Virus record (IMG/VR): IMGVR_UViG_2695420540_000004
Direction: 5' to 3' (one strand)
Source of the DNA: a virus
Lineage: Duplodnaviria; Heunggongvirae; Uroviricota; Caudoviricetes
DNA: 14,907 bases
In this document: positions 3,798 through 9,228 of the stretch, in pieces
Layout: the number at the start of each line of letters is the position of its first letter
How positions within the stretch are numbered: the first letter of the stretch is position 1
Notes under the pieces: generated by a model
Database searches by the model: none
Told to the model about the DNA's origin: nothing
Seen by the model: only the letters and a program-made list of their open reading frames with translations
Position numbers and translations under genes: made by a program

Positions 3798-3820
3798 CCC
3801 GCCGATGAGCGGGTTTTTTT
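3798..3820 (+). terminator. Intrinsic terminator hairpin; its 3' arm and T-run start tRNA cassette copy 1
   Basis: CCCGC-cgatga-GCGGG followed by TTTTTTT. Confidence 0.6.
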
Positions 3821-3870
3821 ATACCTGAAAAACGGCACAGGACGTTAAACGTGCTGGTGGTCAGATGAGT

Positions 3871-3899
3871 TTGCAGATGTGATGACATATGGTTATTAT
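3871..3899 (+). promoter_or_regulatory. sigma70-like promoter of the tRNA cassette (copy 1)
   Basis: TTGCAG (3871-3876), 17-nt spacer, TATTAT (3894-3899), 9 nt upstream of first tRNA. Confidence 0.5.
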
Positions 3900-3908
3900 T
3901 CTGCCTCC

Positions 3909-3985
3909 GGCCCTTTAGCTCAGTTGGTCAGAGCGAGCGACTCATAATCGCCAGGTCGCTGGTTCAAGTCCAGCAAGGGCCACCA
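3909..3985 (+). tRNA. tRNA-Ile2 (anticodon CAU, lysidine type reading AUA; tRNA-Met not excluded)
   Basis: Cloverleaf by hand: acceptor GGCCCTT/AAGGGCC, anticodon loop CTCATAA, discriminator A, encoded CCA; close to recalled E. coli ileX. Confidence 0.75.
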
Positions 3986-3986
3986 A

Positions 3987-4063
3987 CCACCACTAGCTCA
4001 TCCGGATAGAGCATCAACCTTCTAAGTTGACGGTGCGAGGTTCGAGTCCTCGGTGGTGGGCCA
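3987..4063 (+). tRNA. tRNA-Arg (anticodon UCU, reads AGA)
   Basis: Acceptor CCACCAC/GTGGTGG, D-stem GCTC/GAGC, anticodon stem TCAAC/GTTGA, loop CTTCTAA, T-loop TTCGAGT, discriminator G, CCA encoded. Confidence 0.7.
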
Positions 4064-4065
4064 GC

Positions 4066-4141
4066 GCCGACTTAGCTCAGCAGGCAGAGCAACTGACTTG
4101 TAATCAGTAGGTCACCAGTTCGATTCCGGTAGTCGGCACCA
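4066..4141 (+). tRNA. tRNA-Thr (anticodon UGU, reads ACA)
   Basis: Acceptor GCCGACT/AGTCGGC, anticodon stem ACTGA/TCAGT, loop CTTGTAA, discriminator A, CCA encoded; one A-C mismatch in the T-stem. Confidence 0.6.
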
Positions 4142-4144
4142 TAT

Positions 4145-4219
4145 GCGGGCATCGTATAATGGCTATTACCTCAGCCTTCCAAGCTGATGATGCGGGTTCG
4201 ATTCCCGCTGCCCGCTCCA
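4145..4219 (+). tRNA. tRNA-Gly (anticodon UCC, reads GGA/GGG)
   Basis: Acceptor GCGGGCA/TGCCCGC, anticodon stem TCAGC/GCTGA, loop CTTCCAA, discriminator U typical of Gly, CCA encoded; resembles recalled E. coli glyT. Confidence 0.75.
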
Positions 4220-4666
4220 GCGAGATTTGAGACGAAGGTTGTTATTTGCACTGACACAATATTGTGTGGGAATGTCTGACTCCTTACCATCTCCTGTTCT
4301 GTGATGTTGTTTTGTTGCAGTTCCAGTGCTCTTTTTTCAGCACCAGAATGGTGCATTGTCGGTCAGGTTACGTAGTGAACCTCTGGCAGGGGACTGATGA
4401 TTCATCATTCTGGTGTTGTAAATATCTCTTCGGACAACTTACAAAATATTCTAAGCAAACCCCGGGAACACACTCTTAACTGCCTTGGCTGGCGGTTTTT
4501 TGTACAGCGCTCGGTATGTGTGAGCTGGAAATCAGATTTTGCATGGACTGGAATCATGCTGTTATTTAGGGGCGAAGAACTGGCTTTTTCTTCCGCCTTC
4601 TCACCAGTAACGATTAGAAAAATAATGAAATGCCCCCCTCCGGGGAGGAGGACCGTAGAAAAAAGG
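4220..4666 (+). repeat. Conserved non-coding segment downstream of tRNA cassette (copy A; near-identical to 8782-9228)
   Basis: 447 bp with 3 substitutions versus the copy-3 homologue; only Cys/Trp-rich implausible ORFs; contains perfect palindrome CACAATATTGTG (4255-4266). Confidence 0.8.
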
Positions 4667-4706
4667 NNNNNNNNNNNNNNNNNNNNNNNNNNNNNNNNNN
4701 NNNNNN

Positions 4707-4808
4707 ACATCAATCATCTGTACTCCAATGACTAGTCTAAAAACTAGTATTAAGACTATCACTTATTTAAGTGATACTGGTTGTCTGGAGATTCAGGGGG
4801 CCAGTCTA
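4707..4808 (-). mobile_element. IS2 left-end fragment (IRL and start of orfA/insC), body hidden in adjacent N-run
   Basis: Reverse complement reads tagactggccccctgaatctccagacaacc...gtcattggagtacagATGATTGATGT, matching the recalled IS2 left terminus and InsC start MIDV. Confidence 0.7.
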
Positions 4809-4824
4809 TAAACCTGGAGGCATC

Positions 4825-5037
4825 GTGGAAAAAATAAAGAAACTATTTAGTAGTAAATACGCAGTCATACGTCGTGATGACCTGTCAGTTATAGTCGAAA
4901 TGGATTACTTCCCTGAAACCAAAAAATCAATGATGTATCGTAATGGTCGAAAGGCAATTTTTTTACCGATGAGGGTAAGTGACATTATGGGAAATGATAA
5001 ACTGCTGGATGAATTGCGAGTCAGAGCATCCTGTTAG
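4825..5037 (+). CDS. Hypothetical small phage protein
   Basis: GTG 4825 preceded by GGAGG (4816-4820); 70 aa; start uncertain; ORF-track start 4771 lies inside the IS2 terminal repeat and was not used. Confidence 0.35.
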   Translation: MEKIKKLFSSKYAVIRRDDLSVIVEMDYFPETKKSMMYRNGRKAIFLPMRVSDIMGNDKLLDELRVRASC

Positions 5038-6974: not shown

Positions 6975-7049
6975 GCGGGCATCGTATAATGGCTATTACC
7001 TCAGCCTTCCAAGCTGATGATGCGGGTTCGATTCCCGCTGCCCGCTCCA
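6975..7049 (+). tRNA. tRNA-Gly (anticodon UCC)
   Basis: Identical to 4145-4219. Confidence 0.75.
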
Positions 7050-7274
7050 GTCAGAGTCTTTCAGTCTGCGATGATGGGAAATCCCGGAGTGACTGAAAGA
7101 CGTTTAAGTTATGAATGATCGCCTTTTTTTGCAAAATTGCTGTGCAGAAATACTAACCTTCGGGCGTGCGATCATTCATAAGCACTCTGCTTTTATTCCG
7201 ATTAACTGTGGGTGGTTTGTTGGATAGAGTGTGAGGTGTACTGGCAATAGCGGACACTACCATTTGTTCTTTTT

Positions 7275-8093
7275 TTAAGCAGCCATCTGATGATATTTTT
7301 CCCTGAAGGCTGCCGGGGAGATATTCCCCAGACGAGAGTGACGACGCTGACGATTGTAGAAAATCTCAATGTATTCCCGTATTACTGAGATGGCTTCATC
7401 CCGGTTATTAAAACGATAGTGGCTCAGGCTCTCATTTTTCAGCGTTCCCCAGAAGCTTTCCATCGGAGCGTTGTCGTAACAGTTACCTTTACGCGACATT
7501 GATGTTTTCAGACCAGACTGCTCCTGTATGACCCGGTAATCGTATGCGCAGTACTGTGAACCTCGATCAGAGTGGTGGATTAGCCCGGCAGGTGGGCGCT
7601 GGCTCCTGAGCGCCATAAACAGGGCTTTACCTGTCAGCTCTTTTGTCATGCGCTCTCCCATGGCGTAGCCGACAATTTCGCACGTATAAACATCTTTGAT
7701 GCCAGCGAGGTACAACCATCCCTCCTGTGTGGCAACATACGTCAGGTCCGCCACCCAGACCTGATTTGGTGCTGTAGGAGCGAACGTCTGGTTCAGCAGA
7801 TTTGGCGCAACTGGCAGATTGTGGTTCGAGTTCGTAGTCGCTCTGAACTTGCGTTTCTGCTTACAGCGTAGCCTTAGCTCCTTACGAAGACGTGCCAGTC
7901 GGTCACGACCAACGATGATGCCATTCTCTGCCAGCTCCGTCTGGAGCCGCCGGGTTCCATATGTTTCGCGAGTGCGGATATGTGCCACCTTAATCTCCAG
8001 TTTTAGCCGCTCATCACTTTGTTTTCTGTCTGAGGGTTCATGCTGTACCCAGTTGTAATAACCGCTCCTGGATACACCAAATACCTGACACAT
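7275..8093 (-). CDS. IS3-family transposase OrfB (DDE integrase core)
   Basis: 272 aa with DDE/rve motifs ...WVADLTYV...HHSDRGSQY...NAPMESFWGTLK...YNRQRRHSRLGNISPAAF. Confidence 0.85.
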   Translation of the reverse strand: MCQVFGVSRSGYYNWVQHEPSDRKQSDERLKLEIKVAHIRTRETYGTRRLQTELAENGIIVGRDRLARLRKELRLRCKQKRKFRATTNSNHNLPVAPNLLNQTFAPTAPNQVWVADLTYVATQEGWLYLAGIKDVYTCEIVGYAMGERMTKELTGKALFMALRSQRPPAGLIHHSDRGSQYCAYDYRVIQEQSGLKTSMSRKGNCYDNAPMESFWGTLKNESLSHYRFNNRDEAISVIREYIEIFYNRQRRHSRLGNISPAAFREKYHQMAA

Positions 8094-8128
8094 CGCTTCA
8101 ATGGGAAATTGTTGTCGCCATTGTTCGA

Positions 8129-8369
8129 TTAACGCGTATTTTTCAGCGACTCCTGTGCAAAATACGCTGTTGCTTTTTTTAATATATCTCGCTCAAGGCG
8201 AGCTTCATTTAACGCCTTACGCAGTTGCAGAATTTCAGATTCCAGTTCAGCCACCGTGCGGGAACCAGGAGTACCGAGCCCTTTTCTGGCGGCGGTAACC
8301 CATTGTCCTAAAGTGCCTTCAGGAAGAGATAATCGGGAAGCGCCTTCACTGATCGAAAGTTGATTTTCA
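8129..8369 (-). CDS. IS3-family transposase OrfA, C-terminal fragment (5'-truncated at the cassette junction)
   Basis: Translates ...LSISEGASRLSLPEGTLGQWVTAARKG...LERDILKKATAYFAQESLKNTR*; HTH and leucine-zipper region typical of IS3 OrfA; no start codon within the fragment. Confidence 0.65.
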
Positions 8370-8432
8370 NGCGGGTTTTTTTATACCTGAAAAACGGCAC
8401 AGGACGTTAAACGTGCTGGTGGTCAGATGAGT

Positions 8433-8461
8433 TTGCAGATGTGATGACATATGGTTATTAT
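8433..8461 (+). promoter_or_regulatory. sigma70-like promoter of the tRNA cassette (copy 3)
   Basis: TTGCAG, 17-nt spacer, TATTAT. Confidence 0.5.
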
Positions 8462-8470
8462 TCTGCCTCC

Positions 8471-8547
8471 GGCCCTTTAGCTCAGTTGGTCAGAGCGAGC
8501 GACTCATAATCGCCAGGTCGCTGGTTCAAGTCCAGCAAGGGCCACCA
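8471..8547 (+). tRNA. tRNA-Ile2 (anticodon CAU; tRNA-Met not excluded)
   Basis: Identical to 3909-3985. Confidence 0.75.
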
Positions 8548-8548
8548 A

Positions 8549-8625
8549 CCACCACTAGCTCATCCGGATAGAGCATCAACCTTCTAAGTTGACGGTGCGA
8601 GGTTCGAGTCCTCGGTGGTGGGCCA
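8549..8625 (+). tRNA. tRNA-Arg (anticodon UCU)
   Basis: Identical to 3987-4063. Confidence 0.7.
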
Positions 8626-8627
8626 GC

Positions 8628-8703
8628 GCCGACTTAGCTCAGCAGGCAGAGCAACTGACTTGTAATCAGTAGGTCACCAGTTCGATTCCGGTAGTCGGCA
8701 CCA
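8628..8703 (+). tRNA. tRNA-Thr (anticodon UGU)
   Basis: Identical to 4066-4141. Confidence 0.6.
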
Positions 8704-8706
8704 TAT

Positions 8707-8781
8707 GCGGGCATCGTATAATGGCTATTACCTCAGCCTTCCAAGCTGATGATGCGGGTTCGATTCCCGCTGCCCGCTCCA
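8707..8781 (+). tRNA. tRNA-Gly (anticodon UCC)
   Basis: Identical to 4145-4219. Confidence 0.75.
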
Positions 8782-9228
8782 GCGAGATTTGAGACGAAGG
8801 TTGTTATTTGCACTGACACAATATTGTGTGGGAATGTCTGACTCCTTACCATCTCCTGTTCTGTGATGTTGTTTTGTTGCAGTTCCAGTGCTCTTTTTTC
8901 AGCACCAGAATGGTGCATTGTCGGTCAGGTTACGTAGTGAACCTCTGGCAGGGGACTGATAATGCATCATTCTGGTGTTGTAAATATCTCTTCGGACAAC
9001 TTACAAAATATTCTAAGCAAACCCCGGGAACACACTCTTAACTGCCTTGGCTGGCGGTTTTTTGTACAGTGCTCGGTATGTGTGAGCTGGAAATCAGATT
9101 TTGCATGGACTGGAATCATGCTGTTATTTAGGGGCGAAGAACTGGCTTTTTCTTCCGCCTTCTCACCAGTAACGATTAGAAAAATAATGAAATGCCCCCC
9201 TCCGGGGAGGAGGACCGTAGAAAAAAGG
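8782..9228 (+). repeat. Conserved non-coding segment downstream of tRNA cassette (copy B)
   Basis: Near-identical to 4220-4666 (3 substitutions); continues into unique sequence leading to the holin. Confidence 0.8.

Follow-up and report, generated by a model that had tools for sequence, protein, structure and literature searches.

Genes for tRNAs lie downstream of Q in SfI, Sf6, ST64T and phage 21, where they are thought to supplement rare codons (PMC3636060). In Shiga toxin (Stx) phages, tR' terminates transcription from PR', and the tRNAs appear to be driven from a promoter that lies between tR' and the toxin genes (PMC7547250). A tRNA block of this general kind occurs three times in IMGVR_UViG_2695420540_000004, an IMG/VR virus record (Caudoviricetes) whose whole stretch of 14,907 nucleotides is called the window here. 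The three blocks, or cassettes, are 412 bp long and 100% identical (3809-4220, 6639-7050 and 8371-8782), each with a 100-nt leader followed by the genes for tRNA-Ile2(CAU), tRNA-Arg(UCU), tRNA-Thr(UGU) and tRNA-Gly(UCC). An earlier note on the same sequence had taken the three cassettes as neighbours in one genome and had read their sharp edges as a signature of site-specific recombination or module exchange at tRNA genes. Comparison with finished relatives makes it very probable that the three-copy layout is a scaffold artefact built from a dispersed repeat, and that the real edges of the cassette are module joints of mosaic lambdoid prophages.

The window as a scaffold, probably of separate prophage loci

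Five runs of N (4667-4706, 8370, 9513-9642, 9804-9841 and 10526) split the window, giving six contigs; a single n is the sign that some scaffolders use where an overlap is unresolved. Relatives were found by exact protein look-up in public assemblies, using the DUF1133 protein and the 187-amino acid (aa) form of the ORF6N protein, the 189-aa start variant of which had no exact match. Among the loci obtained, L010 comes from CP019689, the chromosome of Shigella sonnei 75/02 (PMC5447701), and L023 from CP014099, S. sonnei FDAARGOS_90. Contigs, cassettes, flanks and terminators are all given on the plus strand.

Contig 1 (1-4666) and contig 6 (10527-14907) are the left and right parts of one prophage, prophage A. 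According to Pfam and Rfam, contig 1 carries the end of the insertion sequence (IS) IS2, DnaB, RusA, Q (2289-2675), isrK/C4 RNAs and ORF6N (3156-3719), followed by a leader with its terminator, cassette copy 1 and a 446-bp segment called the C flank (C1 allele). All 4666 nt of it are 100% identical to L006 and to L010 (2846-7511). Contig 6, with Rz, HNH, TerS, TerL and portal genes, is 100% identical to L010 8638-12564 over 10527-14453, and the single n at 10526 corresponds to 16 bases of the finished prophage (L010 8622-8637). Finished S. sonnei prophage A runs IS2, DnaB, an 85-aa open reading frame (ORF), RusA, Q, ORF6N, 1.18 kb, holin, lysozyme, Rz, HNH, TerS, TerL and portal. The spacing from contig 1 to contig 6 is 1126 bp in the finished genome, as against 5860 bp in the window. 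At the ten finished-genome loci listed, 16 further places with similar neighbourhoods lying outside the listing, the ORF6N stop and the holin start lie 1.14-1.18 kb apart with one cassette between them.

Contig 2 (4707-8369) belongs elsewhere. It holds the left end of an IS2 (4707-4808, reversed), a 70-aa ORF, DUF1367, YbcO, DUF1133 (5995-6549), a second terminator, cassette copy 2, a different right flank (the D flank) and a reversed IS600 (about 7232-8369) that is 123 bp short, the protein families being assigned with Pfam. From 4807 to 8369 it is 100% identical to L016 and L023, loci of a prophage remnant, remnant B, whose finished order is hok, IS1, 70-aa ORF, DUF1367, YbcO, DUF1133, cassette, D flank, full-length IS600 and tail genes. 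A single chromosome, CP104423.1, contains both, with prophage A at 0.918-0.931 Mb and remnant B at 1.982-1.994 Mb. The two sides of the scaffold gap of 40 N between contigs 1 and 2 (4667-4706) are thus 1.06 Mb apart in that chromosome. Since prophage A and remnant B each have exact matches at separate loci, copies 1 and 2 are both real, at a distance of about 1.06 Mb: copy 1 is found once, at 100% identity, in finished genomes, and copy 2, an exact repeat of it, is matched at 100% in finished remnant B loci.

The ends of contig 2 are themselves informative. The left end falls 102 bp inside the IS2 end, and the right end falls inside IS600 after ...GTTGATTTTCA; the next base among the IS600 copies in the fetched loci is A in 22 cases and G in 11. 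A polymorphism of this kind is a place at which a graph assembler breaks contigs. In the sister draft L059 an identical contig ends at the identical IS600 position and is followed by N and then by C-flank position 4254, not by the start of a cassette, and the sister drafts L054, L045 and L076 chain the same contigs in yet other orders.

At 4707-4809 the first 102 bp of the reversed IS2 left end abut remnant B, with the junction at 4808/4809. Where contig 2 has IS2, seven related loci have IS1 and 33 bp; six of the seven are on complete or near-complete chromosomes (about 4.8-4.9 Mb). Either IS2 has inserted here in this particular strain, or the join is one that the scaffold leaves unmarked.

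Copy 3 opens contig 3 (8371-9512), which contains the cassette (8371-8782), a C flank of another allele (C3, with three single-nucleotide differences from prophage A) and the start of a holin gene; any genomic copy behind it is putative. The description of copy 3 as abutted by a truncated IS element with an n at the junction was accurate: the IS600 of contig 2 lacks its last 123 bp, which finished genomes supply, and the n at 8370 is the scaffold join between this contig end and contig 3. The first base of contig 3 is exactly the base at which loci A and B become identical. Copy 3 starts there because the assembly graph has a branch point at that base, and its left boundary cannot count as independent evidence. 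On the right, copies 1 and 3 do continue into the same segment, agreeing over 590 exact bases and then showing three differences (8961, 8964 and 9070). The 97-aa ORF of the C3 allele matches small draft contigs only, so that copy 3 is not placed in a finished genome. The C3 allele (8916-9512) adjoins IS911, without an intact cassette, in the finished L021 and in the draft contig L025.

At L021 (6816-8062), L018 and L025, IS911 lies within the cassette after its first 171 bp, the equivalent of 8542-8915 is deleted, and the C3 allele is linked to that IS.

The remaining interval, 9513-10526, places paralogous alleles in series: 130 N, contig 4 (9643-9803, a second holin allele), 38 N, contig 5 (9842-10525, a lysozyme allele) and a single n. 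The holin start is present twice, at 9471-9512 and 9652-9693, the two versions being 93% identical and flanking the 130-N gap. These duplicated starts are two alleles of different prophages that the scaffolder placed serially. Against the holin and lysozyme alleles of prophage A, contig 4 is 98.0% and contig 5 99.0% identical, and contigs 3-5 span 98-99.7%.

A second cassette within one locus was found in none of 151 related loci (1.3 Mb), and when the whole window was compared with 5426 complete E. coli genomes, none covered at least 80% of it in one place, the best reaching 40%, and the full arrangement was in no record. A scan of IMG/VR for the junction IS600-n-cassette gave no match, a result that is uninformative taken alone. 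The possibility that the left junction of copy 1 is chimeric was considered and rejected: this junction is absent from these E. coli genomes but is present at 100% identity in S. sonnei chromosomes.

Taken together, the window would be a short-read draft scaffold, almost certainly from S. sonnei, in which a dispersed repeat was laid out as a local triplication. The repeat would be a late-region block of lambdoid prophages, 412 bp long, in which the T-run of a late terminator is followed by a leader (about 90 nt, including a promoter-like site) and by four tRNAs reading AUA, AGA, ACA and GGA. It would occur once in prophage A, in the order Q, ORF6N moron, leader with tR', tRNAs, C flank and holin, and once, about 1 Mb from there, in remnant B, which IS elements have eroded, in the order DUF1367, YbcO, Q-like DUF1133, tR', tRNAs, D flank and IS600. 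The scaffolder would have inserted the remnant B contig, along with several small contigs that carry paralogous alleles, between the left and right parts of prophage A. The claim of three neighbouring copies in one genome is not confirmed, the left junction of copy 3 and the end of the right flank of copy 1 being scaffold joins. The earlier note had named scaffold joins as what would undo its reading; such joins make up the left edge of copy 3 and the connection of copy 1 to copy 2, and the left edge of copy 1 and both edges of copy 2 are real.

The tRNA genes of the cassette

In copy 1 the four genes lie at 3909-3985 (Ile2), 3987-4063 (Arg), 4066-4141 (Thr) and 4145-4219 (Gly). ARAGORN finds four tRNAs in each copy, and the Rfam tRNA model scores them at 56-70 bits against a gathering score of 29. 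The first tRNA is labeled Met(CAT) by ARAGORN; the identical gene is a tRNA-Ile in RefSeq, i.e. Ile2. A promoter-like TTTGCA-18-TATTAT stands in the leader of every copy (3870-3899, 6700-6729 and 8432-8461) and ends 10 nt before tRNA-Ile. The cassette has Q (PF06530) or the Q-like DUF1133 upstream of it, and finished loci run Q, tRNAs, holin and lysozyme.

In the phage genes ATA is used 6.9 times per 1000 codons, AGA 4.8, ACA 15.8 and GGA 13.0, roughly twice the E. coli averages. The block may supply tRNAs for these codons, which appear commoner in the phage genes than in the host, and expression could come from its own promoter together with Q-dependent read-through of tR'.

The left edge

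On the left, copies 1 and 2 share GCGGGTTTTTTT, and the hairpins in which this sequence lies differ in their loops, CGATGA at copy 1 and TTTAT at copy 2. Hairpin A (3795-3820) has the form AAACCCGC-CGATGA-GCGGGTTT followed by a T-run and was detected in a terminator scan (-12 kcal/mol, z = -3.5). Hairpin B (6621-6651), GAGCCCGC-TTTAT-GCGGGTTT with its T-run, is the more stable of the two (-18.2 kcal/mol, z = -6.1) and stands 72 nt past the stop codon of the Q-like DUF1133 gene. The stem CCCGC/GCGGG is common to both. The upstream genes are ORF6N (PF10543) at copy 1 and DUF1133, with a weak Pfam match to Phage_antitermQ, at copy 2. The shared 3' arm and T-run, the two loops and the ORF6N and Q-like upstream genes are thus as they had first been described.

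At L004, another prophage, the Q gene is 82% identical to that of prophage A (PF06530); directly after it come about 90 nt of leader and a hairpin, with homology to window 3740-3820, and next the cassette. Prophage A has an insert of about 1.05 kb, with Rfam RNAs and the ORF6N gene, between Q and the leader. Hairpin A is probably the predicted tR' terminator of the Q (PF06530) module. More generally, we infer that hairpins A and B are the tR' terminators of two Q-specific modules, the common sequence starting in the 3' arm and T-run. At the left joints each Q type would bring its own cognate promoter, leader and terminator stem-loop, with common sequence from the 3' arm onward.

Rfam places c4-a1b1 at 2703-2755, isrK at 2716-2792, a C4 antisense RNA at 2818-2901 and sRNA-Xcc1 at 3035-3118, all ahead of ORF6N. 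The interval 2703-3719 is presumably an antirepressor moron of the P1 immI or Gifsy-1 isrK type, set between Q and the leader and terminator.

Other loci place the left end of homology elsewhere. Homology of L004 to the copy 1 flank reaches about 70 nt further left, and the finished L009 lacks the hairpin and T-run through an exact 38-bp deletion of 3792-3829 (L009 6636/6637). In 119 viral contigs the left homology ends are mostly at 6722, 6737-6739, 6896 and 6973-6975, with nine at 6639; most are tRNA gene starts.

The right edge

Copy 2 diverges one base past the CCA of tRNA-Gly, as the earlier note had stated. Among 120 IMG/VR contigs with the exact 3' end of this tRNA-Gly, 17 unrelated families of right flank begin 0-1 nt after the CCA. 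Among them are D (62 contigs), a D variant (18) and C (15), and a G at +1 is common to most. The D flank (7051-7231), into which IS600 has inserted, is an alternative leader belonging to another lysis module; its junction with tRNA-Gly is found in 518 complete E. coli genomes at more than 80% query coverage, the best at 100% identity, and at L004 this flank runs on to a holin gene. Beyond the CCA, the right joints would lead into the leaders of different lysis modules.

The tRNA-Gly is identical to E. coli K-12 glyT (75/75) and the tRNA-Thr nearly so to thrU (74/76), two genes of the host operon thrU-tyrU-glyT-thrT, and homology to K-12 ends at the CCA. Identity on the right stops there because only the tRNA gene is conserved, and since homology with host glyT stops at the same CCA, the right edge is the end of a conserved gene. 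On these sequence comparisons the sharp right edge is best read as the point where a strongly constrained set of genes ends and leaders without homology to one another begin. The sharpness first ascribed to both boundaries therefore holds on the right, at the CCA; the left edge is softer, given the shared stem, the further reach of L004 and the 38-bp deletion of L009.

An explanation that keeps some appeal, though we consider it unlikely, is that the right edge stays sharp through capture of host tRNA genes, or gene conversion from them, and not through descent of a phage module. It would fit the 100% identity to glyT and the 97% identity to thrU, two members of one host operon, with identity stopping at the gene ends. 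But the phage has Thr, 3 nt and Gly where the host operon has tyrU and 116 nt between, the tRNA-Ile2 and tRNA-Arg have no counterpart in thrU-tyrU-glyT-thrT, and purifying selection acting on a functional tRNA is an equally good explanation of the identity. The explanation is in any case compatible with mosaic module joints. Simple capture of the host thrU-glyT operon was rejected, as gene order and spacers differ.

Just past the tRNA-Gly of copy 2, the D flank has a conserved hairpin (7056-7101) with arms GTCTTTCAGTC and GACTGAAAGAC and an invariant internal loop CUGCGAUGAUGGG ... CCCGGAGUGACUG. Compensatory changes were seen in 3 of 17 pairs among 16 distinct versions from viral contigs. The hairpin has no Rfam match, C/D-box matches being at chance level, and at permissive E-values the C and D flanks likewise gave chance-level matches only. 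A proposal that we regard as speculative, with perhaps a slender chance of being right, is that the tRNA block acts as portable perfect homology, kept identical to the host by selection or gene conversion, for preferential swaps between Q modules and lysis modules, and that, separately, the hairpin at 7056-7101 is an undescribed structured RNA of the late leader. If so, tRNA gene ends would be preferred mosaic joints.

Weighing of the explanations

Several points count against the scaffold reading. It draws on finished relatives and sister drafts, not on the source strain, and Shigella genomes rearrange via IS elements. The left edge of copy 1 and both edges of copy 2 are free of N and are real sequence. 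The IS2 end of contig 2 is unlike the IS1 and 33 bp of finished loci, which means that the strain differs somewhat from the references. Finally, the tR' role proposed for the hairpins and the tRNA-promoter role proposed for TTTGCA-18-TATTAT are consensus-level inferences only.

A real triplication in the source strain, in which remnant B and a third cassette reached prophage A by recombination between prophages, whether homologous or mediated by IS elements, has several facts in its favour: Shigella genomes carry many IS elements and are rearranged, many variants of these loci are interrupted by IS2, IS600, IS1 and IS911, recombination could run through the 412-bp repeats, and contig 2 has an IS2 junction unlike the finished references. 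Yet both of the joins that it requires are N runs. The 40-N gap would need to contain at least 1.2 kb of IS2 and the rest of the C flank, and the n at 8370 stands for at least 123 bp of IS600, exactly at the IS600 polymorphism. The start of copy 3 at the exact A/B divergence base is what an assembly graph predicts, not what biology does; the same ends are joined differently in sister drafts; two cassettes stand together in no finished genome or related locus examined; and the holin start is duplicated as two alleles. We therefore hold a real triplication to be highly improbable.

The check for an integrase or att core that the earlier note had proposed came out negative. Neither a tyrosine nor a serine recombinase was found by Pfam among the ten largest ORFs of 142-9255, where DDE transposases of IS elements were seen instead, and homologues matching the remaining and downstream genes had no recombinase domain; the sole integrase seen (L009) lies at the prophage end. 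Within the window the 3' ends (14-20 nt) of the four tRNAs are confined to the three full cassettes, so no orphan tRNA 3' core was found, and the identity block is a whole gene set, not an att core. An att site at tRNA-Gly was rejected for want of a recombinase gene among the ORFs and homologues searched and of a duplicated 3' core in the window. That the 3' end of tRNA-Gly is an att-like site at which a site-specific recombinase swaps downstream modules is likewise highly improbable: although tRNA 3' ends are classic integrase targets and many unrelated flanks begin 0-1 nt from the CCA, mostly sharing a G at +1, the ORFs and homologues searched hold no recombinase gene, there is no orphan or duplicated 3' core, the site lies within a late operon and not at a prophage end, breakpoints also occur at the 5' ends of tRNA-Ile, tRNA-Thr and tRNA-Gly, and the host glyT-thrT context diverges at the same base, the edge being simply the end of a constrained gene.

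Of the two processes that had been suggested for the breakpoint, module exchange finds support in a general sense, with several Q-side and at least 17 lysis-side flanks, and site-specific recombination does not. Recurrence of the cassette with alternative flanks in other genomes, for which the earlier note had proposed to look, was found, the same tRNA block being present in many lambdoid prophages.

Comparison with known systems

The resemblance to integrase attB sites in tRNA 3' ends is limited to the homology discontinuity at a tRNA 3' end. Unlike them, this locus shows neither an integrase among the ORFs searched nor a duplicated core, it lies within an operon, and what is conserved is whole genes and not a 3' segment. 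With repeat-induced misjoins of short-read assemblies, in contrast, the window shares N-marked joins, contig ends in IS elements or at branch points, paralogous alleles in series and differences of order among sister assemblies, and no difference was seen. The scaffolding of IS- and prophage-rich drafts can create apparent local repeats, and N-marked junctions deserve comparison with finished relatives before they are read biologically.

In lambdoid mosaics, near-identical blocks end abruptly at gene or signal boundaries. The cassette does the same, being one block that is found joined to various Q-type modules on its left and various lysis-type modules on its right, and has nothing distinctive in this respect; its edges coincide with tRNA ends since the block consists of RNA genes.

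Lambdoid late tRNA clusters are a close parallel. As in these, the genes lie past Q and a predicted intrinsic terminator and before holin and lysozyme, the tRNAs stand in tandem and serve rare codons (AUA, AGA, ACA and GGA), and a promoter-like site stands between terminator and tRNAs. The set differs, as it is Ile2-Arg-Thr-Gly here and not Ile-Arg-Arg or Asn-Thr. The ileZ-argN-argO tRNAs of 933W are, we assume, a cluster of the same class; a search of the available literature on ileZ/argN/argO found no paper. The Ile2-Arg-Thr-Gly set is already annotated by RefSeq in many E. coli prophages. What remains as biology is a rare-codon tRNA block between Q/tR' and the lysis module of mosaic lambdoid prophages, which is already known; as the block has been both annotated and described, the finding opens no new question. 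The promoter-like site in the cassette leader fits the tRNA promoter found downstream of tR' in an Stx2 phage (PMC7547250).

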